This document shows positions 50,599 to 63,365 of a stretch of 64,000 bases of DNA, piece after piece. The stretch is from NCBI GenBank assembly GCA_039809265.1, contig JBDHUR010000001.1, positions 5,914 through 69,913 on the forward strand. The letters run 5' to 3'. A program made the translations under genes and the position numbers. Every line of letters starts with the position of its first letter. Within the stretch, counting starts at the first letter, position 1. The DNA comes from Minisyncoccia bacterium (GTDB lineage: Bacteria > Patescibacteriota > Minisyncoccia > Phycocordibacterales > UBA9973). Below the pieces are notes generated by a model. That model saw only the letters and a program-made list of their open reading frames with translations, searched no databases and was not told where the DNA came from.

Positions 50599-53325
50599 AT
50601 GCAAAGATACAAAAGAAAATTACATACTGCGCTATCTCTTGTACTAGGAATATCTGTCTTTGCGCAAAGCTTTATTGCAATCATAACACCACAGACAGCA
50701 TACGCGCAAAATGCTAGTGCGAGCGCCTTTGCTGGACTAGGTTCCATCGCCGGAGCAGGAGTTGGCTGTCTTTTGGGTAATGCTTTCTCAGGAACCGGAC
50801 TCTTTAGCTCTGCTGACGGAAACACAACTGCGGGAATGGAAGTACCTACTGGAGACAAGGGGACTAGAGGAAATACTAGCGCACAGAAACAAAAAGAAAA
50901 CTGCCTAGACGCCATAGCTTATGCTGCAGCAAAAGCTTTACTGAAAAAATTTACTCAAGCTACTATAGTCTGGATAAACAGCGGTTTTAAAGGCGAGCCT
51001 CTGTATATAAAAAATCCTGAGTCATTTTTTAAAAGCATAGCGAACGAACAACTGGGTGGAATTATTTCCACATTAAGCAATACAGACAAGGTTCCATTTG
51101 GTAAAGACTTAGCAAGAAGCATTATCCTCTCCACGCAAGCAACTTTTGCAAAAAAGATTGAATACAATTTAAATAAAATAATAAGTCCAGATAGGGTGTA
51201 TCGTTTTCAAGCAGACTTTTCTGCTGGAGGCTGGGACGGCTGGTTAGGAGCGACCCAATTCCCACAAAACAATACTATCGGGGCACACATCGTAACCGCA
51301 GACGAGGTTACATATAAACTCTCTGGTACAGCTAAAGCGCCCGCCGAATATTTACAAGATGAATTAAGTCAAGGTATGGGATTTCTTGGACTAAAGAAGT
51401 GCGTTCAAACTTCAGATGGAAAAACAGCTGCCGACTATAATTACGAAGAATCAACAAATGAATCAATAGAAGACATAGATCCAAAAAAAATCACATGTAC
51501 TCGTTGGGAAACAATTACCCCTGGAACAGCTATTGCAAACCAAATGAACCTAACATTAGGCACATCTCAGCGACAACTAGAACTTGCAGATGAGCTAAAT
51601 GAAAGTATTGCTGGGGTATTTGATGCTCTTTTTAGTCAACTTTTAAACAAAGGTCTAGCCTCTTTGGGCAACAGCTCTTCTTCTAGTGGATATAATGTGG
51701 GTATCTATGGTGGTTATGGAAACAACTCTAATAACTCTAGCCTAAATAGTAACGGTAACCCATACGGGGTAGAGGATCCAGACCAATGGTATAACCAAAA
51801 CCCTACATTTAATATTTGGCATGACCTACAGACTATTATAGACGTTCAGCAAAAAGTCTACGATGATCTTCAAAAAGAAAATTCTGCATTACAAAATCTT
51901 ACAACTGCAATATATGAACTAGACTTTTGTGTGCCTGGACCAAACCCACTATGGTACGATAACGCGCAACAAACAGTAAACGATTTCTTTGGAGATATCC
52001 CTCAAAAGGCTGATGATCTTGGAGATAAGTTACGAAAAGCAAATAAATGGTTTGACCCAGGGGGTATGGTTATGGCTTCTACAGGCTGGGCAAACGAACT
52101 AGGTTTAAACCCACCAGGGTCAAACGGCTGGTCTCAACAAAGAATACAAGAACTGTATGCAAAATTCCTAAAGCAAGCCATAAACTTCTCTGGCGAAGAT
52201 GACGAAACAATGACCTCAGAACATATATCTTCTTTGGGTAGCATTGTGCTTGAACAATATGCTTCAAAAATAAGCTCAAAATACGGCGTATCTGGCTTAC
52301 ACCAAGCTGGAGAATATATGCCGACAGTGGCAGCAAGCTTGCCAAAGCTATACAACAACATACCTAGATACTTAAACCAAATTGACACCAACAACACAAA
52401 GATGGATGACTTTGAAGGTATTATCCGCCAACTTCAATCTATAAGCGTTGCGGTTAAAGATATCCCAGAGGACCCAGACAACCAAACAAGTGCCGACAAA
52501 ACCGCAATAACTACATATCTAAGAATTATAGGTAGCATGGCACAATATATGGCAAGCGAAAGTGTTATACAAACACTGGAAGACGAACTATTTGCTATAA
52601 ATGGCATATACGACATGGTGGCAAATGGAAATAATAGCTTGATAAATCAATGCAAGACAGAACTACGCACAACAAGTCCGACTGGAATAGACTCTTCTAA
52701 TATAAAAGGTTTACGTTTTGCTTACCCTACAGACTTGTTGCCACAGTCTATACAAGATGCATACACAGGCAACCTTGGTGGATATATGACACATCAAATG
52801 TACAAATTCGGTACTTCATATCTTCCGGGAACTTTCTACAAGAGCAATGTAAAGCAGACTAGCTGGCAGTGGCCTTCCCTAGACTCATTAACACACCAGT
52901 ATGATATGAGATCATATTTTACACCAAGCTTTTCTCAAAAATCTGCATTATACGATCAACGAGCGGGTAAATATAACCCAGATATTCCAGGACTATGGGC
53001 ATGGTGCACGGCAGAAGGATTCCAATACACAACAGTAGTAAATAATGCAGTTCAAGCAACAAATCTTGGAATACAATTAGGGCAATCGTACACATTTACG
53101 ATACCAGCGCCGTCCAATAATTCAGGCTTTGGAACAACTCCAGCTCTTTGTAATCCTAGTTTACCTGACAACAATGGTACGGTGATAAAAAACGACCCTA
53201 ATATTAGTGACTTTACATTAAATAGAGCGCTAGACTTTATAGATGTTACAAGTTCTGGTTTGCAAGTTAATAGACCGGACCAAACTAACCTTGCTGGATT
53301 CGAATCATTCCTTGGAATTTATTGA
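50599..53325 (+). CDS. Large (908 aa) secreted protein, first gene of the T4SS-like block
   Basis: Signal peptide 'LSLVLGISVFAQSFIAIITPQTAYAQNASA'; Asn/Gly/Ser-rich; no enzymatic motif. Confidence 0.55.
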   Translation: MQRYKRKLHTALSLVLGISVFAQSFIAIITPQTAYAQNASASAFAGLGSIAGAGVGCLLGNAFSGTGLFSSADGNTTAGMEVPTGDKGTRGNTSAQKQKENCLDAIAYAAAKALLKKFTQATIVWINSGFKGEPLYIKNPESFFKSIANEQLGGIISTLSNTDKVPFGKDLARSIILSTQATFAKKIEYNLNKIISPDRVYRFQADFSAGGWDGWLGATQFPQNNTIGAHIVTADEVTYKLSGTAKAPAEYLQDELSQGMGFLGLKKCVQTSDGKTAADYNYEESTNESIEDIDPKKITCTRWETITPGTAIANQMNLTLGTSQRQLELADELNESIAGVFDALFSQLLNKGLASLGNSSSSSGYNVGIYGGYGNNSNNSSLNSNGNPYGVEDPDQWYNQNPTFNIWHDLQTIIDVQQKVYDDLQKENSALQNLTTAIYELDFCVPGPNPLWYDNAQQTVNDFFGDIPQKADDLGDKLRKANKWFDPGGMVMASTGWANELGLNPPGSNGWSQQRIQELYAKFLKQAINFSGEDDETMTSEHISSLGSIVLEQYASKISSKYGVSGLHQAGEYMPTVAASLPKLYNNIPRYLNQIDTNNTKMDDFEGIIRQLQSISVAVKDIPEDPDNQTSADKTAITTYLRIIGSMAQYMASESVIQTLEDELFAINGIYDMVANGNNSLINQCKTELRTTSPTGIDSSNIKGLRFAYPTDLLPQSIQDAYTGNLGGYMTHQMYKFGTSYLPGTFYKSNVKQTSWQWPSLDSLTHQYDMRSYFTPSFSQKSALYDQRAGKYNPDIPGLWAWCTAEGFQYTTVVNNAVQATNLGIQLGQSYTFTIPAPSNNSGFGTTPALCNPSLPDNNGTVIKNDPNISDFTLNRALDFIDVTSSGLQVNRPDQTNLAGFESFLGIY

Positions 53326-53459
53326 GCCTTGTGAGAATAAAAATATATAAATGACCTAGGTTTTCCACCTCATAGACGAGTGAAGTATGGAAAGTAGTGT
53401 TATAATTGAAACGTATTTCTTGCTTTGATAGGCAGTTTCTGTGTACACGAAATATTTTC

Positions 53460-56400
53460 ATGTTTAAGAAAATCGTACTAATAGCTACAATATTTGGCAT
53501 CTTCGGCGGCTTATTTACACCAGCGTTTTCTGTGAAAGCGTGGGCAGAGGCTGACTTACAAAAAATAACTATTTCTATTAGTGTTAATACCATACAAGAA
53601 GATAAATCTAATGGTAAATACTCAGCAATCATACCTGTAGTTATTAAATCAAATTTTAAAGAATTTGGAGATCACACTATCCATCTAGATATCTACAGCG
53701 CAGCTCCAGGAGGAAAAGCTGAGAAGAAGGTCAGTAAAGAATTCACTCCTCATATAGACAAACCGAAAGATGAGTTTATAGAACAAACATTTCTAACACA
53801 GACAGATGCGGTTTTAGAAAAAGGTTATGGCTATTCGGCTATTGCTTTCATTTCATTACCACAACTAGCTGGGCAGACTACTCCTGGACAATGGATTATT
53901 GGACCGAACGGTATTCCCGTTGTCTCCTTTCCACCCAAGACAACAAATACTTATACTCCACCAATATCCAACACCTCAATTTTTACAATAAAAACCGACG
54001 GCTCTACAAGCATTGCGAATGAAGATAGTAGTGGTACACAAAATACAGCACAAAACGTAACCTCAAACGAACCTTCTGCTCTTCCAGAATGTAATATTCT
54101 TTACTCCAGCACATGGCCTGGTTGTATTGCTCGAGTTATATATTATATTTTTTTTATACCAACATCTTTTGTGTTTGGACTCAGTGGTCAGTTTTTAGAC
54201 TGGGGAACAAGTTTCACTATAGACTCAAATTCATACAAAGGCAGTGCAGCTACTTTCATTGAATCTGGATGGAAAATAACACGTGATATTGCAAACATAC
54301 TATTCATATTCATACTCCTCTGGGTTGGCATAGGCACAATACTAGGCTCACACAGTGTAGATGCAAAGAAGACAATAGGTATGGTGATAATTATAGCTCT
54401 CCTGTTAAATTTCAGCTTGTTTTTTGCCAGAGTAATAATAGACGCATCTAATATTCTGGCTGGGGTTTTTTATAATCAAATAGACGTGCAAGATGAAGGA
54501 TCCAACAACCAATGGGTATTCAGTGATAAAAATGTAAAAAATATTTCCACGGCTATAGTTAGTAAATTTAACCCACAAAAGCTTTTTGCTCAAGCTGGAA
54601 CACTTAAGATAAACACCGGCACAGGTGTAAAGGATGGATCAACAGATGGTGGAACGAATGGTGAACCAGCCCCCGGACAATTCATAATAATCACACTCAT
54701 AATGTCTGTTATAAACTGTATAGGTATTTGGGTATTTTTCTCTGTTGGCTTCCTATTTCTTTCTCGTGTAGCAGGACTTTGGCTTGCTATGATATTTGCA
54801 CCATTGGCATTCATATCATACATACTTCCTTCTAGTTCTGCGGGAGCGCTGGGAGACATGCATCATAGTAAGTGGTGGGGCAACCTTGTTCGCTTGGCAA
54901 TGATGGTGCCAATGTTTATGTTCTTTATGTATCTCATACTCATGTTCATGAATACAAACTTCATAGCAAATGCAATGGGAGACAAAACCACAACACTTGC
55001 GATACTTGGAGTAGTAATACCGTTGCTCATCATTGTAGTACTTCTACAAAGAGCAAGGAAAATAGTGGTAGACTGGTCTGGAGAACTTGGTAAAATGGCA
55101 GCACAGGCAGGCACAGCTGTGGCTGGATTTAGTGTGGGCGCACTGACAGGCGGAGCAGCGATGCTTGGCCGTGGTACTATTGGCAGACTCGCCAACAAAG
55201 CTGCGAGCAGTGAAGAGTTAAAAGATAGAGCAGCAAAAGGAGACAGGATGGCAAAAATGCAACTAAAAAGCGCAGAATTTCTATCAAAATCAAGTTTTGA
55301 TGCTCGCAACACAACGGTTGGAAATAAAGTTTCTCAAGCAACAGGCATGAACCTGAATAAGGGTTTATCTTTTGCCGGTCTGAATACCAAATCCACAGAA
55401 GGTGGCTGGGTAGGACTACAGGCAAAAAAGGCAGAAAAGGAAGCAAGTAGATGGAAAGACAGTTATGACCACCACGCTTATGAACAAGAAGAAGAAAAAG
55501 TAAACGCCGAAAAAGAAAAGCAATCAAAAAACAAAGATATAAAAGAAGATATACAAAACAAAATACGTGTGGAGAAAGCAGCCATAACAACAATGGCAGA
55601 TGGATCTCAAGAAAAAAAGGACGCACAGCGACGTGTTCAAAAACTAACAGAAAGCTTATCTATAGTTGATACAAACATTAGAGCATATGAGAAAGGTGGT
55701 AAAACATATGCCATAAACTCAAACGGAGAATATGTAGATAAAAACGGTAAAGTTGTGACAGACAAGAAAGACGCACACATGGAAGAGTCTTTGGGTATAC
55801 AAAAGATGGAGAAAAACAAAGAGCGCTTAAAAACAGCGAGACAAAAAAACCACGAATCTGTTTTGCGTCGAAAATCTGGTAAACGATATCTGGATGACGA
55901 AAGAGATGAATTGGGTAATATAAAGAAATTTGGTGAAGAAATAACCCCTGGTTTGGAAAAGAAACTGAGAAAAGAAAAAGACGAAAAAAATAAAGAAAAA
56001 AATGAAGCCCTGCAACACAGGCTTGATATAGGAAAAGATATAAATGATGTAAATCAAAAAATGAAAGAAGCGGCAAAAAAAGTAAGCGAGGCACAAAAAA
56101 AGGGAGATAAAGCACTTATAAAATCTACAAGCGACGCACTTAAAGGTTTAGTAGAACAAAGAAAGCAGCTAGAAAAATCTCAAAATGATGCAAAAGAAAA
56201 ATCTGACACCTTAGTAAAAGAATTTAATAAGGTTTCCAACAAGCTTGGTAAAGTAGAAGTAGCTAATCTTAAAACAAACTATAACGGTGTAAGGCAAGTA
56301 CTAAGAGAACTTGGCGAAGGTGCGGCTAGGGGCGCAGCAGTAGGTGCAGCAGTAGGGACTGCTATTCCTGGAGCAGGCACGTTTGCTGGAGCTGGAGTAG

Positions 56401-56594
56401 GAGCAGTCATGGGTGGACTTAGACAAGTACTTGAATACAGTGGTACCACGAACAGAAGTATTGCAAATGGACACATTCCACACTACCATGGTAGTGGCTC
56501 AACATACAGAGAGCCTAGCGGTGGTGGACAAGACACACCATCGGCATCTTCACACAGTGGAGGAGGTGGAGGAGGGGATCATTCACACCACTAA
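53460..56594 (+). CDS. VirB6/TrbL-like polytopic membrane protein with N-terminal secreted domain and long Lys/Glu coiled-coil C-terminal tail
   Basis: Start at MFKKIVLIATIFG; signal peptide, ~230-aa extracytoplasmic domain, 6-7 TM helices between aa ~245 and 560, ~500-aa hydrophilic tail ending Gly/His-rich. Confidence 0.55.
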   Translation: MFKKIVLIATIFGIFGGLFTPAFSVKAWAEADLQKITISISVNTIQEDKSNGKYSAIIPVVIKSNFKEFGDHTIHLDIYSAAPGGKAEKKVSKEFTPHIDKPKDEFIEQTFLTQTDAVLEKGYGYSAIAFISLPQLAGQTTPGQWIIGPNGIPVVSFPPKTTNTYTPPISNTSIFTIKTDGSTSIANEDSSGTQNTAQNVTSNEPSALPECNILYSSTWPGCIARVIYYIFFIPTSFVFGLSGQFLDWGTSFTIDSNSYKGSAATFIESGWKITRDIANILFIFILLWVGIGTILGSHSVDAKKTIGMVIIIALLLNFSLFFARVIIDASNILAGVFYNQIDVQDEGSNNQWVFSDKNVKNISTAIVSKFNPQKLFAQAGTLKINTGTGVKDGSTDGGTNGEPAPGQFIIITLIMSVINCIGIWVFFSVGFLFLSRVAGLWLAMIFAPLAFISYILPSSSAGALGDMHHSKWWGNLVRLAMMVPMFMFFMYLILMFMNTNFIANAMGDKTTTLAILGVVIPLLIIVVLLQRARKIVVDWSGELGKMAAQAGTAVAGFSVGALTGGAAMLGRGTIGRLANKAASSEELKDRAAKGDRMAKMQLKSAEFLSKSSFDARNTTVGNKVSQATGMNLNKGLSFAGLNTKSTEGGWVGLQAKKAEKEASRWKDSYDHHAYEQEEEKVNAEKEKQSKNKDIKEDIQNKIRVEKAAITTMADGSQEKKDAQRRVQKLTESLSIVDTNIRAYEKGGKTYAINSNGEYVDKNGKVVTDKKDAHMEESLGIQKMEKNKERLKTARQKNHESVLRRKSGKRYLDDERDELGNIKKFGEEITPGLEKKLRKEKDEKNKEKNEALQHRLDIGKDINDVNQKMKEAAKKVSEAQKKGDKALIKSTSDALKGLVEQRKQLEKSQNDAKEKSDTLVKEFNKVSNKLGKVEVANLKTNYNGVRQVLRELGEGAARGAAVGAAVGTAIPGAGTFAGAGVGAVMGGLRQVLEYSGTTNRSIANGHIPHYHGSGSTYREPSGGGQDTPSASSHSGGGGGGDHSHH

Positions 56595-56636
56595 TTCAAC
56601 ACTTGAAAAATGAAAAGTAGGGTATACTAAGAACAT

Positions 56637-57476
56637 ATGGACAATCAAGAAATTATTCAAAAAATACAAGACCTATATGCTAGCGTTCCTGGTGCGCTAC
56701 AAAAAGCTATAGTTTCTTCAGATTATCAAAACAAAATTGTAGATATAGGCAAAAACAACAAACTAACAGTTGCACAGCTTGGGGACTTGGAACTTGTCAC
56801 AACATTTGTCATGCTCGGAGCAACTTCACCTAATAATTATAAAAGTGAGATTGCCGAAAAGCTTGGAATACAGGACGAAGCCGTAGTGAATAAAATAGTG
56901 GATGATGTAAACACACAAATATTTTCTACTATTCGTAATGAGCTAAAGGAAATAAATACACCAATAGAAGAAGAGGATGATGATAGCGAGACTTTTTGGC
57001 ATCACAGCGAGGAAGAGATGGATGCTGCCGGGTTTCAAGCAAACAACACGGCTGAAACAAACACCACATCCATACAGACTGTAAGCGCTAAAGACCAAGC
57101 GGAGCTAGAGAAATCTGGAATAGAGATAGAGAAAACACGCCCAACTTCCGAGGAATATGTGAAGGCAACAGTACTACCAAACTCTGGACTACCAGCATCT
57201 GGACTTCAGACACGCGAAAATATCCTAAATGGCATAGAGCACCCTACGGAAAGCAAGCCTTCATTTATAGACAAGCAATTCTCTGGTGTTTATACCATGC
57301 CAACAAAAGAGACAACATATACACCAAAACCTGTGGCGCCTGCGCAGACAGGCGCCACAGGTAAAGCAGCTGGCCCCGCTCCAATACCTGCACCAAAAGC
57401 GCCATCGACAGACTTGCCAACAAATACAGCAGGCGAGCCACCAGCAAAAATTGATCCTTATAGGGAAATAATATAA
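56637..57476 (+). CDS. Hypothetical acidic, Pro-rich cytoplasmic protein within the T4SS-like block
   Basis: 279 aa, no TM. Confidence 0.45.
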   Translation: MDNQEIIQKIQDLYASVPGALQKAIVSSDYQNKIVDIGKNNKLTVAQLGDLELVTTFVMLGATSPNNYKSEIAEKLGIQDEAVVNKIVDDVNTQIFSTIRNELKEINTPIEEEDDDSETFWHHSEEEMDAAGFQANNTAETNTTSIQTVSAKDQAELEKSGIEIEKTRPTSEEYVKATVLPNSGLPASGLQTRENILNGIEHPTESKPSFIDKQFSGVYTMPTKETTYTPKPVAPAQTGATGKAAGPAPIPAPKAPSTDLPTNTAGEPPAKIDPYREII

Positions 57477-57493: not shown

Positions 57494-57910
57494 ATGCAAT
57501 TCAAAGTCCCACAATTTATAGATGTTGAAGACAAAATTTTTGGACCTTTTACGTTCCGACAATTTTTGTATCTGGCTGGAGGAGCGGGGATATGCTTTTT
57601 ACTTTACAAAACTCTGCCCCTCGTTGTAGCTATAATTATAATGTTGCCGGTCATAGCTCTTTCTCTTGCTTTGACTTTCTATAGAGTAAACGAAAAACCT
57701 TTCATATATATACTTGAGGCATATATAGGCTACCTTGGCAAAAACAAGCTGTACGTTTGGAAAAAAGCTCCGCCGGAAAAGAAAAGCACAGACAAGACAG
57801 ACGCTGCACAGAAACCGGCAGCAGAGAGTTACGTGCCAAAGCTTTCTGAAAGCAAGCTAAAAGACATATCTTGGAGTTTGGATGTGCTGGATGTAAATAA
57901 AGGCAATTAA
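57494..57910 (+). CDS. Small two-TM protein, VirB3/PrgI-like
   Basis: 138 aa; 'FTFRQFLYLAGGAGICFLLY' resembles the VirB3 'L(T)RP..FLGVP' region; lies upstream of virB4 as in most T4SS loci. Confidence 0.45.
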   Translation: MQFKVPQFIDVEDKIFGPFTFRQFLYLAGGAGICFLLYKTLPLVVAIIIMLPVIALSLALTFYRVNEKPFIYILEAYIGYLGKNKLYVWKKAPPEKKSTDKTDAAQKPAAESYVPKLSESKLKDISWSLDVLDVNKGN

Positions 57911-57939
57911 CAATTAAAAAACAAAATTGGTGATACAAT

Positions 57940-58605
57940 GTGCCATATATGGCTTTGAATGCTAGAGCAACTCAAGATTTTGTACCGATACAAGAGGTCA
58001 GAGACGGCGTCATAATACTAAAAGACGGCGGGGTACGAGCTGTTTTGCTTGCTTCTTCTATAAACCTCTCTCTCAAGTCCGCGGATGAACAGCAGGCTAC
58101 CCTTTTACAGTTTCAGACTTTTTTGAACTCGTTAGACTTTTCTACACAAATATCTGTCCAGTCCCGAAGGCTAGACATACGTCCATACTTAAACTTGCTG
58201 GAAAACAGGATGAAAGAACAGCTTGAGCCGTTGCTTAAAATACAAACAAGGGAGTACATAGAGTTTATAAGGTCTTTTACAGATAGTGTAAATATAATGA
58301 CAAAAAGCTTTTTCATAACCGTACCGTACACCCAACCTGCACTTTCTGCCGGCGGAGCAGTTAGCGGACTGAAGAATTTGATCCCTGGGCAAAAAAGCCA
58401 GCCGGATAAAAAAAGCACTGAGCAGCTGGACTTTGAAGAGAAAAGGAGTCAACTGGACCAGCGCATAGGGGTAATACAGCAGGGTTTGTCTCGTGTAGGT
58501 ATCCGCACAGTGGAGCTTGGGACAGAAGAGATAGTGGAGCTATTTTACAAAATTTTCAACCCAGGAGAAGTTACACAATCTATAAAACTAGATACGCAAA
58601 GCTAA
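57940..58605 (+). CDS. VirB4/TrbE N-terminal domain encoded as a separate ORF
   Basis: 221 aa; 'VRDGVIILKDGGVRAVLLASSINLSLKSADEQQ' matches the VirB4 N-terminal 'LEDGSIMSIARIDGVAFELEE' region; 'FFITVPY' matches VirB4 'LTLVVYP'. Confidence 0.6.
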   Translation: MPYMALNARATQDFVPIQEVRDGVIILKDGGVRAVLLASSINLSLKSADEQQATLLQFQTFLNSLDFSTQISVQSRRLDIRPYLNLLENRMKEQLEPLLKIQTREYIEFIRSFTDSVNIMTKSFFITVPYTQPALSAGGAVSGLKNLIPGQKSQPDKKSTEQLDFEEKRSQLDQRIGVIQQGLSRVGIRTVELGTEEIVELFYKIFNPGEVTQSIKLDTQS

Positions 58606-58609
58606 CAAC

Positions 58610-60445
58610 ATGGCAATTTTAGACTTCTTAAAAAAGAAAACAGACGCTGGAAATAATAAAAGGGCGGTTTTGCCTGTTTTACCTACAGAAATATACGAAG
58701 CGGCAACATTAGAGTTCAAAGATATTATAGCGCCTTCGGCGCTAAAGATAGAGCCGAAGGCGCTAAACCTTGGAGACAAAATGGCACGCACTTTCTTTGT
58801 CATATCTTATCCAAGGTATTTGTCAGACAACTGGTTCTCTCCGATCATAAATTTGGACAAGATATTTGATGTATCCATCTTCATACACCCCATAGAAACA
58901 GCCAAAATTTTGCGAGACTTCCAGAAAAAGGTAGCGGAAGTGCAAAGCCAGATAAGCATCCGCGAAAGCAAAGGTCTGGTGCGAGACCCGATGCTGGACA
59001 CTGCATACCAAGACCTAGAATCTTTGCGAGACAACCTACAGCAAGCGCAAGAGAAGATATTTGATGTTGGGCTTTATATTACAGTTTACGGCAATAACGA
59101 AAACGACTTGTTCAAGATAGAAAACGAGATAAAGTCTATATTGGAATCAAAGCTGGTATACTTGAAACCTGCCCTTTTCCAGCAAGAGGAAGGCTTTGAC
59201 TCTGTGATACCCATAGGCAATGACATACTGAACGTGCACCAAAAACTAAACTCCGAACCGCTTTCATCCATCTTCCCATTTGTTTCTTTCGACCTAACTT
59301 CCGACAAAGGAATACTTTACGGGGTGAATAGGCACAACTCTTCACTTGTTATATTTGACAGATTTTCTCTTGAAAACTACAACTCTATCATCTTTGCAAA
59401 GTCAGGCTCTGGAAAATCTTATGCTACGAAGCTGGAAATACTTCGTACACTCATGTTTGACACAGAAGTTATTGTCATAGACCCGGAAAGAGAGTATGAG
59501 TATTTAGCTGAAGCAGTGGGTGGAAGATACTTCAACATATCACTGTCTTCGCAACATCACATAAACCCTTTTGACTTGCCGGTGCCGCGAGAAGACGAAA
59601 CCCCGGCAGATGTGCTTCGTTCTAATGTCATAAACCTCGTTGGCCTATTCCGTATCATGCTTGGCGGATTGACCCCAGAAGAAGACTCTATAGTAGACAG
59701 AGCAATAACAGAAACTTACGCAATCAAAGACATAACTGCAGACTCCGACTTCTCCAACATTGAACCGCCGCTTTTGACAGACTTTGAGATGGTGCTTGCT
59801 GGCATGGATGGATCAGAGTCTCTGATACAACGCCTAACCAAGTTCACTAGAGGCTCTTGGTCTACATTTCTAAACCAGCCATCAAACGTAGACATAAATA
59901 AAAAATTCGTAGTGTTCTCCGTGAGAGACATGGAAGATGAGCTGAAGCCGGTAGCAATGTACATAGTCACGCACTTTATCTGGAACGCCGTGAGAAAGAC
60001 ACTGAAAAAACGCCTCTTAGTGGTGGATGAAGCTTGGTGGATGATGAAGTCAGACGACACAGCCTCTTTCCTTTACTCTATAGCCAAGCGAGGCAGAAAG
60101 TACTACTTGGGACTTTGCACCATAACCCAAGACGTGGGAGACTTCATGCGCAGTCCATACGGCGTACCCATCGTTACAAACAGCTCCCTACAACTCCTAT
60201 TGAAACAGTCTCCGTCTTCTATAGACCTGCTGCAAAAAACCTTTAATCTTACAGACGAAGAAAAATATCTGCTACTGGAATCCAATGTCGGGGAAGGGAT
60301 ATTCTTTGCCGGACTAAAGCATGTTGCTATAAAGATAATATCTTCATATACAGAAGACCAAATAATAACTTCCGACCCATCGCAGGTGTTAGCAATAAAG
60401 AAATCAAAGGATGAACTAGAAGCAGCGGAACGCGGTGTAAAGTAA
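58610..60445 (+). CDS. VirB4/TraC/CagE-family T4SS ATPase (middle plus C-terminal ATPase domain)
   Basis: 611 aa; 'FFVISYPRYLSDNWFSPII' (VirB4 'IYSFREYP' region), Walker A 'AKSGSGKS', Walker B 'LLVVDEAWWMM', downstream 'LGLCTITQD' motif. Confidence 0.8.
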   Translation: MAILDFLKKKTDAGNNKRAVLPVLPTEIYEAATLEFKDIIAPSALKIEPKALNLGDKMARTFFVISYPRYLSDNWFSPIINLDKIFDVSIFIHPIETAKILRDFQKKVAEVQSQISIRESKGLVRDPMLDTAYQDLESLRDNLQQAQEKIFDVGLYITVYGNNENDLFKIENEIKSILESKLVYLKPALFQQEEGFDSVIPIGNDILNVHQKLNSEPLSSIFPFVSFDLTSDKGILYGVNRHNSSLVIFDRFSLENYNSIIFAKSGSGKSYATKLEILRTLMFDTEVIVIDPEREYEYLAEAVGGRYFNISLSSQHHINPFDLPVPREDETPADVLRSNVINLVGLFRIMLGGLTPEEDSIVDRAITETYAIKDITADSDFSNIEPPLLTDFEMVLAGMDGSESLIQRLTKFTRGSWSTFLNQPSNVDINKKFVVFSVRDMEDELKPVAMYIVTHFIWNAVRKTLKKRLLVVDEAWWMMKSDDTASFLYSIAKRGRKYYLGLCTITQDVGDFMRSPYGVPIVTNSSLQLLLKQSPSSIDLLQKTFNLTDEEKYLLLESNVGEGIFFAGLKHVAIKIISSYTEDQIITSDPSQVLAIKKSKDELEAAERGVK

Positions 60446-60491: not shown

Positions 60492-61529
60492 ATGAAGATA
60501 AGCATATTTGCAAACTCGTTTAGAAAGTTTGCCTTAAAAGCGGTGTTGGCTTTTGCTTTTTTGTCTATACTTATTTCACCAGCCAACGCTTTGGCTCAAT
60601 CTTTGCTTGATTCTTCTTTTACTGCCAACGATGTATCGGTGGAACTTTCACCGGAAATACCGGCACCGAACCAGACTTTGACGATATCTTTAACAAGCTA
60701 CACGGTAGACCTAGATAAAGCGCGAATGACTTGGACACAAGACGGCAAGATAAAAAACAGTGGGACCGGCATAAAAGAGTTCAGTGTGCAAGTGGGTGAC
60801 GTGGGCTCAACAACAACCATAGATGTATCTATAGTTATAAATGGATTGAATAGATTTGACAAAAGGATAGTTGTCAGCCCCTCAGAAGTAGACATGTTGT
60901 GGGAAGCGGTAGACTCTTATGTTCCACCGTTCTATGAAGGAAAAGCACTGCCTTCATCCGAAGCTGTAATAAAAGTTGTGGCAATACCCAACAACAAGAC
61001 AAACAATACCGACATTCAAACCGGCAACTTTGTTTACAATTGGAAAAAGAACTTTGCAGCAGACCAAAGCGCATCTGGCTTTAGTAAAAATAGCTACGTT
61101 TTCAAGGCAAGCTACCTGAATGCAGAAGAAACAATATCTGCAAATGCAGCCTCAGTATCTGGCAACAGTGGCGGGGAAGGAAGCGTAACCATAGTGACAG
61201 GTAAACCTAAAATAATATTCTATGAAGACGCAGCAGGCATCGGCCCTGTATATGCCAGTGCCTTGAACCAAGGCTATAGACTGACCAACAACGAAGCCAC
61301 GGTCGTAGCCGTGCCGTATTTCTTCTCTGTGAGCAATCCTGCCGCCAAAGACTTGCTTTACAGATGGAGCATAAACAACAACAACATAGACACGCCTTCA
61401 CCGGCAAATACACTTGTCATAAAAAGCGCCGGGGAAACAGGACAAGCAAAAGTTGGCTTGCACTTGGAGTCCGCAAGTAAACTTTTCCAATCCATAGACC
61501 AGACATTTTTTGTAGACATAATAAAGTAA
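60492..61529 (+). CDS. Secreted protein (345 aa) in the T4SS-like block
   Basis: Signal peptide 'ALKAVLAFAFLSILISPANALA'; beta-rich composition. Confidence 0.5.
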   Translation: MKISIFANSFRKFALKAVLAFAFLSILISPANALAQSLLDSSFTANDVSVELSPEIPAPNQTLTISLTSYTVDLDKARMTWTQDGKIKNSGTGIKEFSVQVGDVGSTTTIDVSIVINGLNRFDKRIVVSPSEVDMLWEAVDSYVPPFYEGKALPSSEAVIKVVAIPNNKTNNTDIQTGNFVYNWKKNFAADQSASGFSKNSYVFKASYLNAEETISANAASVSGNSGGEGSVTIVTGKPKIIFYEDAAGIGPVYASALNQGYRLTNNEATVVAVPYFFSVSNPAAKDLLYRWSINNNNIDTPSPANTLVIKSAGETGQAKVGLHLESASKLFQSIDQTFFVDIIK

Positions 61530-61535
61530 AGCAGT

Positions 61536-63365
61536 ATGACTTTCAAAAAGATAATGAAAAATAAGGCGATGATAGCAATGAGGATTTTTATTGTTGCATT
61601 CATCGCATCCTTGCCATTTATCTCTCGTGCAGTATCTGGAACAGAAATGCAGACCAACGAACTGACAGACACTTCTGTACTAATAACCGGACGCATATTA
61701 AACCCAGACAACCAAAGCGTAAAAATAGGCACAGTAGAGCAAAACAACCCGCAAGCTTCATATGTATATACCAACCCGTTTACCTTGCTGGATGATGCCA
61801 GTGTGCCGCCAATAGAGGGTAGGACAGGAAATACTACAGGGTATGGGAACACAAGTGTGGGGGAAAGAACTGGTAAAAACAATACTACAGGATATGGTAA
61901 TACAAGCGTGGGAGAAAAAGGTGTTTACAATAACACTTCAGCTTATGGAAACACTGGTGTTGGAGAAAAAGGCTCCGCATACAACAGTGTGGTGTACCAA
62001 ACCATCTCTGGCCTTGCACCAAATACTACATACTGCTCTGTGGTAGTAGATGCCAGCGATCCTTCCAATACACCTATATATGGCAGTGAGATATGCTACA
62101 CCACACTTGCAACAGGCGCTTCATATAAAAATGGGGAACTGACAAGTGTGGTATTAGACACACAGTCAATGACAGATACTAGTGCAACGATAAAGTTTAT
62201 GGTAAATCCAGACGGAAAAGCACTCGGACTTAGCCTAAAATATGGCGTTGGCAAAAAGGACTTTACAGACAGCGACTATACCAAAGACATAGGGGAATTC
62301 TTCCGCACTGCGACGACCACTTCCAACAGCCTGCCTGCAACAGCAGAGATCAAAAATCTAGAGAAAGATACAACTTACTATTATGAAGTTTACAACACAG
62401 ACACAAAAGAAGTTTACCACGACAACTTATTCACAACAGCTGCTTCTGCCGGCACAGTTATAAACCAAAACAGCAGTAATACCACAACAACAACTACATG
62501 CGTACCAGGGGAGTACTGCTTGCTTGCTCCGCTTCCGGGACTTTCAAAGATAAATGTACAAACGACAGGTATAGGCGGATACCTTGCAATAATATTCAAG
62601 ATAGGTATAGGCCTTGCTGGAGTATTGGCTGTGGTGATGCTGGTAGTTGGAGGCATACAGTACATGTCTACAGATGCGTTTTCTGAAAAAGCAGATGGCA
62701 AGTCTAGAATGATGAATGCAATCATTGGGCTTCTGCTTGTCCTTGGTGCATGGGTTATACTAAATACACTAAATCCAAATTTGCTCATATTCAATCTGGA
62801 TTTACAGAAGGTTTCTATAACAGTTGACCCTTCTCTCATAGATAGTGATGAAGCAGAGACACAACCACCAACTGGTGCTAACTACACATCATATCCATAT
62901 AAAAATCGAGACAAAATAGACGATGTTTTTCCAACACCTAAAACATCTGATATGCTTGGCACACTCAAAACTTTAAATGTCGATGTAAGTGGTTCAAACA
63001 GTTCAAAACCCATCTGTGATACAGTTGGACAAACAGGCTGCACAGCATTGGCTGGCATACCTTCAAAGGTTACTGTTGGGCTGCAAAAAATTAGGACAAA
63101 GTGTCCTAATTGTGAACTTACAATAACTGGCGGAACAGAATTTTGGCTTCATAAATCACATGGTCCTGGAAAAGATAAGATTGACTTAAGAAACAACTCC
63201 CGGGCCTCAAACTTTGTAAAATATGTGACTAGCGGTAAAAAAATAGGGCAGATAACTGGGTGGGGTGTACTGTATGTTACAGATGGAATAGAGTTTGTTG
63301 ATGAGGGAAATCATTACCATGTCTGGGGTTGGAATAATGACCATGCTTCAAGTTATAATAAATAA
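61536..63365 (+). CDS. Composite surface protein: signal peptide, GYGNTSVGE repeats, FN3-like modules, VirB2/TrbC-like double-TM hairpin, C-terminal LAS-metallopeptidase-like domain
   Basis: 609 aa; 'GGYLAIIFKIGIGLAGVLAVVMLVVGGIQYM...GKSRMMNAIIGLLLVLGAWVIL' hydrophobic hairpin; 'HKSHGPGKDKIDL' and 'EGNHYHV' resemble H-x(n)-D / H-x-H zinc motifs. Confidence 0.5.
   Translation: MTFKKIMKNKAMIAMRIFIVAFIASLPFISRAVSGTEMQTNELTDTSVLITGRILNPDNQSVKIGTVEQNNPQASYVYTNPFTLLDDASVPPIEGRTGNTTGYGNTSVGERTGKNNTTGYGNTSVGEKGVYNNTSAYGNTGVGEKGSAYNSVVYQTISGLAPNTTYCSVVVDASDPSNTPIYGSEICYTTLATGASYKNGELTSVVLDTQSMTDTSATIKFMVNPDGKALGLSLKYGVGKKDFTDSDYTKDIGEFFRTATTTSNSLPATAEIKNLEKDTTYYYEVYNTDTKEVYHDNLFTTAASAGTVINQNSSNTTTTTTCVPGEYCLLAPLPGLSKINVQTTGIGGYLAIIFKIGIGLAGVLAVVMLVVGGIQYMSTDAFSEKADGKSRMMNAIIGLLLVLGAWVILNTLNPNLLIFNLDLQKVSITVDPSLIDSDEAETQPPTGANYTSYPYKNRDKIDDVFPTPKTSDMLGTLKTLNVDVSGSNSSKPICDTVGQTGCTALAGIPSKVTVGLQKIRTKCPNCELTITGGTEFWLHKSHGPGKDKIDLRNNSRASNFVKYVTSGKKIGQITGWGVLYVTDGIEFVDEGNHYHVWGWNNDHASSYNK

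Follow-up and report, generated by a model that had tools for sequence, protein, structure and literature searches.

The 64,000-nucleotide window analyzed here, from a Minisyncoccia bacterium, very probably (we would put it at about 0.88) encodes a genuine, functional two-gene VirB4 belonging to the chromosomal T4SS of a Patescibacteria genome of the Paceibacteria/Nomurabacteria type. The smaller chain would be the N-terminal module of VirB4, and the larger chain the remaining part of the N-terminal domain together with the ATPase domain. As a gene arrangement, the two-gene layout is real, functional and already known; it is ordinary, being the usual state in these ultra-small bacteria and having been described in 2025.

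Layout of the virB4 locus

The first gene (57949..58605, + strand), TrsD-like or 'TraC-like', encodes a 218-aa protein, which is the first ~215 residues of VirB4 made as a chain of its own. Its TAA stop codon at 58603-58605 is followed by a 4-nt spacer, caac (58606..58609, + strand), read from the sequence itself, and then by the ATG at 58610 that opens the gene for the 611-aa VirB4 ATPase chain (58610..60445, + strand), whose product carries the C-terminal P-loop ATPase domain. The two ORFs are thus adjacent, 4 nt apart and in different frames (57940 mod 3 = 1, 58610 mod 3 = 2), just as the sequence-only reading had described them. A TAG at 58589-58591 closes the ORF2 frame, limiting the stretch in which both frames are open to the 14 nt of 58592-58605. 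The small ORF had been given as 221 aa, which is correct for the maximal ORF (57940..58605, with a GTG start at 57940) but not for the gene; the conserved start is the ATG at 57949, with MALNA.ATQ found in every relative aligned, and the gene is therefore 218 aa long. A protein of exactly this sequence is present in public collections (84 blocks of the index). A VirB4 family member is typically one polypeptide of ~750-830 aa; this locus instead has two genes, of 218 and 611 aa, that start and stop separately. No Shine-Dalgarno motif was found in the spacer (58606-58609), a terminator scan found no + strand terminator between the two genes, and promoter and terminator scans around the pair gave no signal exceeding the shuffled expectation.

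Directly 5' to the pair, at 57494..57910 (+ strand), lies a separate gene for a 138-aa PrgI, a VirB3-like small membrane protein (Pfam PF12666, E 4.5e-11, 43.6 bits against a cut-off of 27). A PrgI gene also precedes the pair in independent assemblies, in the fused relative described below and on Bacillota plasmids. On the 3' side, a 609-aa protein encoded at 61536..63365 (+ strand) contains a T4SS pilin-like segment (Pfam PF18895 T4SS_pilin, 9.9e-9; NCBIfam Mbov_0395 pilin-like, 1.3e-6, which is under that model's cut-off) and is included as context only. The VirB4 pair is accordingly situated within a T4SS cluster, between the VirB3-like gene and the pilin-like gene. The order PrgI (VirB3), N-terminal module, ATPase core remains colinear with that of an ordinary virB3-virB4 pair. 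Housekeeping genes and tRNA genes lie around the locus, as expected of a chromosome.

Two complementary parts of VirB4

The motifs named in the sequence-only reading are present. ORF1 has the DG-rich RDGVIILKDGG and, at position 121, FFITVPY; ORF2 has YPRY (67), Walker A GSGKS (266) and Walker B VVDEA (471), the two Walker motifs being intact. ORF2 scored 378.2 bits against NCBIfam conju_CD1110 (NF045971; cut-off 325), aligning to positions 182-733 of the 752 in the model, and matched Pfam P-loop_TraG at 5.5e-26. It fell under the cut-offs of the TIGR00929 and TraC-F-type models, as is expected for a monoderm-type VirB4. Among PDB entries, ORF2 matched the VirB4 C-terminal domain 4ag5 (3.3e-41) and TrwK (4e-6). 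ORF1 matched positions 2-119 of the same CD1110 model, so that a complete VirB4 N-terminal domain is obtained only from the two chains jointly.

The same division is seen against single-chain proteins. PrgJ of pCF10, TrwK of R388 and a family of ~790-aa proteins from a Colwellbacteria-like lineage, represented by P0352 (797 aa), are colinear with ORF1 followed by ORF2, whereas in the window the chain is interrupted after about residue 215, within the N-terminal domain. ORF2 residues 37-568 align to PrgJ 225-772, and residues 37-601 to P0352 231-796; ORF1 aligns to P0352 1-212. The assignment of ORF1 to the VirB4 N-terminal region and of ORF2 to the remainder was thus borne out by CD1110, PrgJ and P0352, and the small product does align to the VirB4 N-domain, both in the N-terminal positions of family models and in P0352. 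The 218-aa protein is thus the first ~215 residues of VirB4, separately encoded.

In a fold search, the best PDB matches of the ORF1 structure model were TrwK/VirB4, and when the ORF1 profile was searched by sequence against PDB chains nothing meaningful came up (best E 0.67); homology of ORF1 to solved VirB4 structures is visible by fold only. An hhalign comparison of ORF1 profiles with the single PrgJ sequence gave no signal; it is the NCBIfam family models and the fused Patescibacteria relatives that tie ORF1 to fused VirB4. PF26593 ('TraC-like') is among the precomputed matches of the exact 218-aa protein, of every listed homologue and, at their N-terminus, of the fused forms; the Pfam search of ORF1 run here returned no family.

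ORF1 also matched the TrsD/TraD model NF041427, at 27.1 bits (E 3.1e-6), well short of the curated cut-off of 200 bits that pSK41 TrsD itself passes with 227.6 bits. With hhalign, the ORF1 family profile aligned to pSK41 TrsD over 174 columns (12-207 against 33-217 of 227; E 1.8e-5, probability 78%), and a low-diversity profile gave E 0.018. By these scores ORF1 is a remote homologue of TrsD and not a member of the family by the NCBIfam threshold. The resemblance of KSFFITVPY in ORF1 to RTFFVISYPRY in ORF2 raised the idea of an internal duplication, which was rejected: profile-profile comparison found no similarity between the ORF1 and ORF2 profiles (E 0.26). The two ORFs are complementary halves rather than paralogues.

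In the fused lineage both parts occur colinearly in one protein, and 118 of the 120 best relatives of P0352 are fused, at 775-807 aa. TIGR00929 VirB4_CagE covers residues 17-750 of P0352 in a single stretch, and both Pfam TraC_F_IV (169-394) and CD1110 (173-762) cross the break point. The AF2 model of P0352 superposes on full-length TrwK/VirB4 (E 1e-26, TM 0.63); it was built from fused homologues only, and a joint MAFFT alignment of the halves with the fused protein misplaced the short sequences and was discarded. It is because the fused lineage spans the junction that the break, after about residue 215, can be placed inside the N-terminal domain. Single-ORF orthologues, which had been proposed as grounds for refuting a genuine split, do exist in these ~790-aa ORFs, but they belong to a different lineage and are only 38% (ORF1) and 56% (ORF2) identical to the window genes; they are therefore a fused sister state and not an intact version of the window gene. 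Two apparent splits within the fused lineage, P0410 and P0506 (600 aa), were considered as recurrent recent fission and rejected as artefacts, because a 100-N scaffold gap lies inside the N-terminal part at both loci.

Conservation of the split and alternative explanations

Four independent assemblies, each from a different sample, share the junction DNA letter for letter, spacer included, and contain the exact 218-aa protein. More than 8000 homologues were listed for each ORF. The best 120 for ORF1 are all 211-235 aa long, and the best 120 for ORF2 are 604-684 aa long with 84-95% identity. Orthologous loci were compared for the same split, as had been suggested, by counting the loci that hold both genes in related Patescibacteria genomes: in 79 of 79 the genes are separate, each with its own stop and start, with an in-frame ATG in 78 (L023 lacks one). 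Four of these pairs overlap by 4 nt (ATGA), 54 have spacers of 1-15 nt, 16 of 16-160 nt and four of 451-510 nt. The second gene is found in all three frames relative to the first (44/22/12), and in two loci (L042 and L064) an unrelated four-helix-bundle gene lies between the parts. Among the homologues listed, no close relative (>90% identity) with one continuous ORF was seen, and all relatives with 59-86% ORF1 identity are split, which rules out a break private to one genome. The pairing of the two genes is far beyond chance, and the split is the norm in this Patescibacteria clade. Of the three alternatives in the sequence-only reading, separate-gene conservation thus supports the genuine two-subunit VirB4, in which the two chains would associate.

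An explanation that shares the gene structure but not the function is that the small protein, though descended from the VirB4 N-terminus, now acts independently as an accessory factor (an assembly chaperone, say, a regulator or an adaptor between PrgI and other components) and is not docked permanently and stoichiometrically on VirB4. ORF1 is the faster-evolving of the two (60-86% identity among the homologues listed, against 84-95% for ORF2), some ORF1 relatives have extra C-terminal extensions (300-443 aa), and the pair tolerates long spacers and inserted genes. TrsD homologues of Gracilibacteria do not adjoin virB4 (PMC12102498), and TrsD has no assigned function in the literature. However, the segment absent from ORF2 is exactly what ORF1 supplies, that segment is covalently part of VirB4 in the fused lineage, where single family models cross the junction, and the break falls within one domain rather than between domains. 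We therefore regard an accessory role as distinctly unlikely.

Production of one full-length VirB4 by a programmed +1 ribosomal frameshift or stop-codon bypass would fit the +1 frame of ORF2 relative to ORF1 and the tiny gap. No slippery or RF2-type motif of the kind found in prfB or dnaX is present in 58592-58605, however, and ORF2 has a conserved ATG and N-terminus of its own in the related loci. Because the relatives vary in frame, in spacing (up to 510 nt) and in inserted genes, a recoding signal common to them is impossible, and recoding at this locus is highly improbable.

The two remaining alternatives of the sequence-only reading have hardly any probability left. A sequencing or assembly error, such as a one-base indel near 58592-58609 breaking a single VirB4 gene, would account for the 14-nt jointly open stretch, the 4-nt gap and the single-ORF relatives in another lineage, but it is refuted by the shared junction DNA of the four assemblies and the two-gene state of all 79 relatives with their very different spacers and frames, and opposed as well by the 84 index blocks holding the exact 218-aa protein, the conserved N-terminus that ORF2 has of its own and the low identity of the fused relatives. 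A frameshift usually shows itself as adjacent ORFs in differing frames, but a decaying VirB4 pseudogene is refuted by the same junction and locus evidence, and is at odds with the strong purifying selection on both parts across thousands of clusters (identities of 60-86% for ORF1 and 84-95% for ORF2, with lengths unchanged), the intact Walker A and B motifs, the clade-wide split and the essential TrsD homologue of a cultivated relative (PMC12102498).

Known systems and implications

The window locus is an instance of the Patescibacteria T4SS described by Quinonero-Coronel et al. 2025 (PMC12102498), with no substantive difference. It has the component set of the systems in that survey and in Ca. 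Southlakia epibionticum ML1 (Wang et al. 2023, PMC10633639), namely PrgI/VirB3, a TrsD homologue adjoining virB4, VirB4 and VirB2-like pilins. TrsD is the commonest T4SS component in Patescibacteria, is remotely homologous to the VirB4 N-terminus and adjoins virB4 in 1,664 of 2,272 cases; the homologue in ML1 is listed as essential (PMC12102498). In the literature the Patescibacteria T4SS is chromosomal and probably not conjugative. Fused lineages go unmentioned in the main text of PMC12102498, as does a break falling within the N-terminal domain; these are only a small addition to the published picture. Guglielmini 2014 makes no reference to TrsD in its main text, so the TrsD/VirB4 homology is credited here to PMC12102498.

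The same split occurs in TrsD-TrsE of the staphylococcal plasmids pGO1/pSK41 (MPF_FATA, pGO1 subclass). In pSK41 a ~220-aa TrsD follows a VirB3-like gene and precedes a VirB4/DUF87 ATPase shortened to ~670 aa, the same order as in the window, the placement of TrsD/TraD genes being that of a ~200-230-aa gene 3' to a VirB3-like gene and directly 5' to VirB4. Alignment of pSK41 TrsD with ORF1 is nearly full-length yet very remote, and the staphylococcal system is plasmid-borne and conjugative, whereas the window genes have a chromosomal setting. Plasmids of Pontibacillus, C. perfringens and Geobacillus carry the same split. TraD-TraE of pIP501 was likened to it through the NCBIfam family name 'TrsD/TraD' alone; the 'TraD' in the pELF plasmid paper is a VirD4-like protein and irrelevant to this family. 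VirB3-VirB4 fusion proteins of some conjugative systems represent the opposite event. In such fusions the VirB3, VirB4-N and VirB4-C modules keep one fixed order and are joined or separated at varying points, and the published survey found none in Patescibacteria (PMC12102498). To call a split VirB4 unusual was therefore an overstatement, since this clade and the pGO1/pSK41-type plasmids have it as their standard form and it has been published as TrsD + VirB4 (PMC12102498). As a lineage marker it is modestly useful, in that within Patescibacteria the split and the fused form each go with particular lineages.

VirB4 N-terminal domains are membrane-embedded, join protomers and contact VirB3 and VirB8 (PMC12857230). 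In the two-gene VirB4, the genes would be co-transcribed and translationally coupled over the 4-nt gap, and the chains may dock non-covalently to rebuild a complete N-terminal domain. The small chain would then supply part of the contacts made by the R388 VirB4 N-terminal domain, with the membrane, VirB3, VirB8 and in dimerisation, and the putative complex would act like an ordinary VirB4, a hexameric motor at the base of the channel.

The two-gene locus leaves current understanding unchanged. For annotation, a ~215-aa 'hypothetical protein' 5' to virB4 is to be read as a TrsD-like VirB4 N-terminal module and not as a frameshift remnant, in thousands of Patescibacteria genomes and several Bacillota plasmids, and the 611-aa ATPase warrants no flag as truncated. 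In a cultivated relative epibiotic growth requires the T4SS; to study that machine structurally or biochemically, both chains would have to be co-expressed, probably with PrgI, and the fused Colwellbacteria-type protein offers a natural, ready-made single-chain construct. It is a rather doubtful proposition that the split is more than a neutral variant of gene structure and that a separate VirB3-binding N-module differs from the ATPase ring in stoichiometry or timing. If it did, only the inner VirB4 ring might, for instance, be capped and membrane-anchored, or assembly of the growth-essential T4SS might be regulated, and the split systems of Paceibacteria/Nomurabacteria and pGO1-type plasmids would be mechanistically different machines from the fused, Colwellbacteria-type ones.

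The gene pair and its relation to VirB4

ORF1, the TrsD-like small gene, is present on the forward strand as the 221-aa maximal open reading frame of the sequence-only reading (57940-58605, GTG start), but the conserved start is the ATG at 57949, the equivalent of which opens the gene in all relatives (MALNA.ATQ), giving a product of 218 aa, the form held in public collections. Its TAA stop codon (58603-58605) is followed by four bases, caac, and then by the ATG of ORF2, the VirB4-type ATPase gene (58610-60445, forward strand, 611 aa), in the +1 frame; both the 4-nt gap and the change of frame had been described correctly. The ORF2 frame is shut by a TAG at 58589-58591, and the two frames are thus jointly open over 14 nt only. 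The motifs claimed for each gene were all located: the DG-rich RDGVIILKDGG and FFITVPY in ORF1, and YPRY, Walker A GSGKS (266) and Walker B VVDEA (471) in ORF2. There is no terminator between ORF1 and ORF2, and the 4-nt gap, which has no Shine-Dalgarno motif, suggests that their translation is coupled.

The products were compared with NCBIfam models whose source sequences are full-length VirB4 proteins. ORF1 matched the VirB4_plasma model at N-terminal positions 101-220 of 894 (E 5e-9) and conju_CD1110 at 2-119 of 752 (E 1.6e-5); ORF2 scored 378 bits (cut-off 325) at positions 182-733 of the latter. By these model positions, ORF1 aligns to the VirB4 N-domain and ORF2 to the remainder, as had been proposed. 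Residues 37-568 of ORF2 align with 225-772 of PrgJ (pCF10), which indicates that the initial ~220 residues of a single-chain VirB4 have no counterpart in ORF2. No similarity was found between the ORF1 and ORF2 profiles when these were compared with each other, so the two are complementary halves rather than paralogues.

Conservation as two genes

ORF1 and ORF2 are conserved under purifying selection, in the order PrgI (the VirB3-like small membrane protein, 57494-57910, forward strand), N-module, ATPase core. Among 5.8 billion protein clusters searched, each gene had more than 8000 homologues; the best 120 for ORF1 were all 211-235 aa, and the best 120 for ORF2 were 604-684 aa at 84-95% identity, with no protein of ~830 aa among them. 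When each species was scanned through one genome, at least 438 ORF1 relatives were recorded, and the best 80 loci were all in Patescibacteria MAGs. Wherever both genes were present (79/79 loci), the ORF1 homologue had its own stop and the ORF2 homologue its own start and conserved N-terminus, with an in-frame ATG in 78 of them (the exception is locus L023). The same split was thus found in related genomes, and the description of it as unusual is wrong for this clade. As a separate observation, the ORF2 identity range is unusually high for Patescibacteria, whereas the ORF1 N-module diverges faster (66-86%).

Of the three explanations first offered, a genuine two-subunit VirB4 is the right one, in the form of two distinct genes that complement each other to make up one VirB4. 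Programmed recoding that would join ORF1 and ORF2 was also considered. No recoding signal is visible in 58592-58605, and the second gene of the relatives lies in all three relative frames (+1 in 44 loci, +2 in 22 and 0 in 12), with spacers of -4 nt (an ATGA overlap; four loci), 1-15 nt (54), 16-160 nt (16) and 451-510 nt (four). Since spacers and frames vary in this way, and L042 and L064 have another gene in between, no recoding signal common to these junctions is possible, and this candidate was rejected. A frameshifted pseudogene is refuted by the abundant homologues of both genes, at steady length among the best 120, and by the two-gene state of the related loci. That state also refutes a sequencing or assembly error, as do contigs that were assembled independently, each from a different sample (four in all), and that encode the exact 218-aa protein and, after 4 nt, the 611-aa gene, with 101 nt around the junction identical in all.

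Neighbouring genes and variant loci

The large neighbours in the T4SS cluster (908-, 1062-, 279- and 345-aa proteins; 50599-57476 and 60492-61529) had no significant family match and recur in independent assemblies; the C-terminus of the 1062-aa protein is rich in Gly and finishes with a Gly/His tail. In several genomes a -10-like box (TATACT, TACAAT or TATAAT) was seen ~8-10 nt 5' of the TrsD-like ATG (57925-57948 here; also at ORF1 homologues in loci L001, L004, L006, L011 and L014), and another lies upstream of the 279-aa gene (56612-56636). No Shine-Dalgarno motifs were seen, and a generic promoter scan did not flag the sites. These features may point to mRNAs with a very short leader or none.

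The TrsD-like/virB4 pair tolerates insertions. A TIGR02436 four-helix-bundle gene lies between the two at L042:5634-6084 and L064:5637-6100 (E 1.7e-21 and 1.4e-34); L057 carries a disrupted one, and the 510-nt spacer of L069 is unrelated sequence. At L079:5644-9441 (Minisyncoccia MAG JBAQUS010000011.1) the VirB4 core gene encodes 1266 aa and is interrupted, just upstream of the P-loop domain (Pfam match from residue 911), by an intein (Pfam Intein_splicing 296-928) that carries a LAGLIDADG homing-endonuclease domain (Pfam LAGLIDADG_3 578-660). Five ORF1 homologues (P0296, P0323, P0350, P0351 and P0362; 390-443 aa) have a C-terminal extension past the TrsD-like region, and the two scanned, P0296 and P0350, had no Pfam match. 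MAGs with this Paceibacteria/Nomurabacteria-type locus are often titled 'uncultured Candidatus Saccharibacteria bacterium' (L001, L004, L006 and many others), and the L030 record is titled Gammaproteobacteria; these titles seem to be wrong labels given automatically to Patescibacteria bins.

TrsD, fused relatives and a possible role of the small chain

The arrangement is not new: the split was published as TrsD + VirB4. Quinonero-Coronel et al. 2025 (PMC12102498) found TrsD to be the T4SS component met most often in Patescibacteria and remotely homologous to the N-terminus of VirB4. [quoted passage not shown] Southlakia epibionticum ML1 is essential. The T4SS itself is essential for epibiotic growth (Wang et al. 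2023, PMC10633639). ORF1 matched NCBIfam TrsD/TraD (NF041427) at E 3e-6 and 27 bits, below the cut-off of 200, and a diverse profile of the ORF1 family was aligned with pSK41 TrsD across 174 columns (positions 12-207 with 33-217 of 227, E 1.8e-5). The pSK41 operon resembles the window in having a small VirB3-like gene, trsD (227 aa) and a 672-aa DUF87 ATPase in order, and large Clostridium perfringens and Geobacillus plasmids are annotated with the same layout, PrgI first, an ORF1 homologue next and a ~620-640-aa VirB4-like ATPase last. In a Pontibacillus plasmid the homologue likewise adjoins a VirB4-like ATPase, but the small upstream gene is annotated only as hypothetical. A 2025 FEMS review (PMC12857230) places pIP501 traC (VirB3-like) 'immediately adjacent' to traE (VirB4); the related operon of pSK41 (L084:25492-28602) has trsD between the VirB3-like and ATPase genes. 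The TrsD/TraD gene can be overlooked in descriptions of such systems.

Our increment over this work is small: a fused sister lineage, and a break placed inside the N-terminal domain. An exhaustive ORF1 search of 1.84 billion cluster representatives gave 2128 related clusters; among the best 150, 149 were short and one was P0352, a 797-aa single-chain Patescibacteria VirB4. Its residues 1-212 align with ORF1 1-208 (38% identity, 2e-45) and 231-796 with ORF2 37-601 (56% identity), and its N-terminus also matches NF041427 (8.5e-8). In a MAG, its gene comes after a PrgI gene in the neighbourhood of dnaA/dnaN/rnpA. Among the best 120 relatives of P0352, 118 are fused as well (775-807 aa), under the names Candidatus Colwellbacteria, Parcubacteria or Patescibacteria; the other two, at 600 aa, look split only because of 100-N scaffold gaps. 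The main text of PMC12102498 makes no mention of fused trsD-virB4 genes in Patescibacteria. Canonical TIGR00929 VirB4_CagE covers P0352 residues 17-750 in one stretch, and TraC_F_IV (Pfam, 169-394) and CD1110 (173-762) span the point where the window genes part; the break therefore falls inside the VirB4 N-terminal domain and not at a domain border.

In R388 the VirB4 N-terminal domains are membrane-embedded, join one protomer to another, and touch both VirB3 and VirB8 (PMC12857230). From these contacts we infer that the 218-aa protein most likely binds, without a covalent link, to the N-terminal part of the 611-aa protein; so docked, it would make the domain whole and tie the ATPase ring to membrane-located PrgI.
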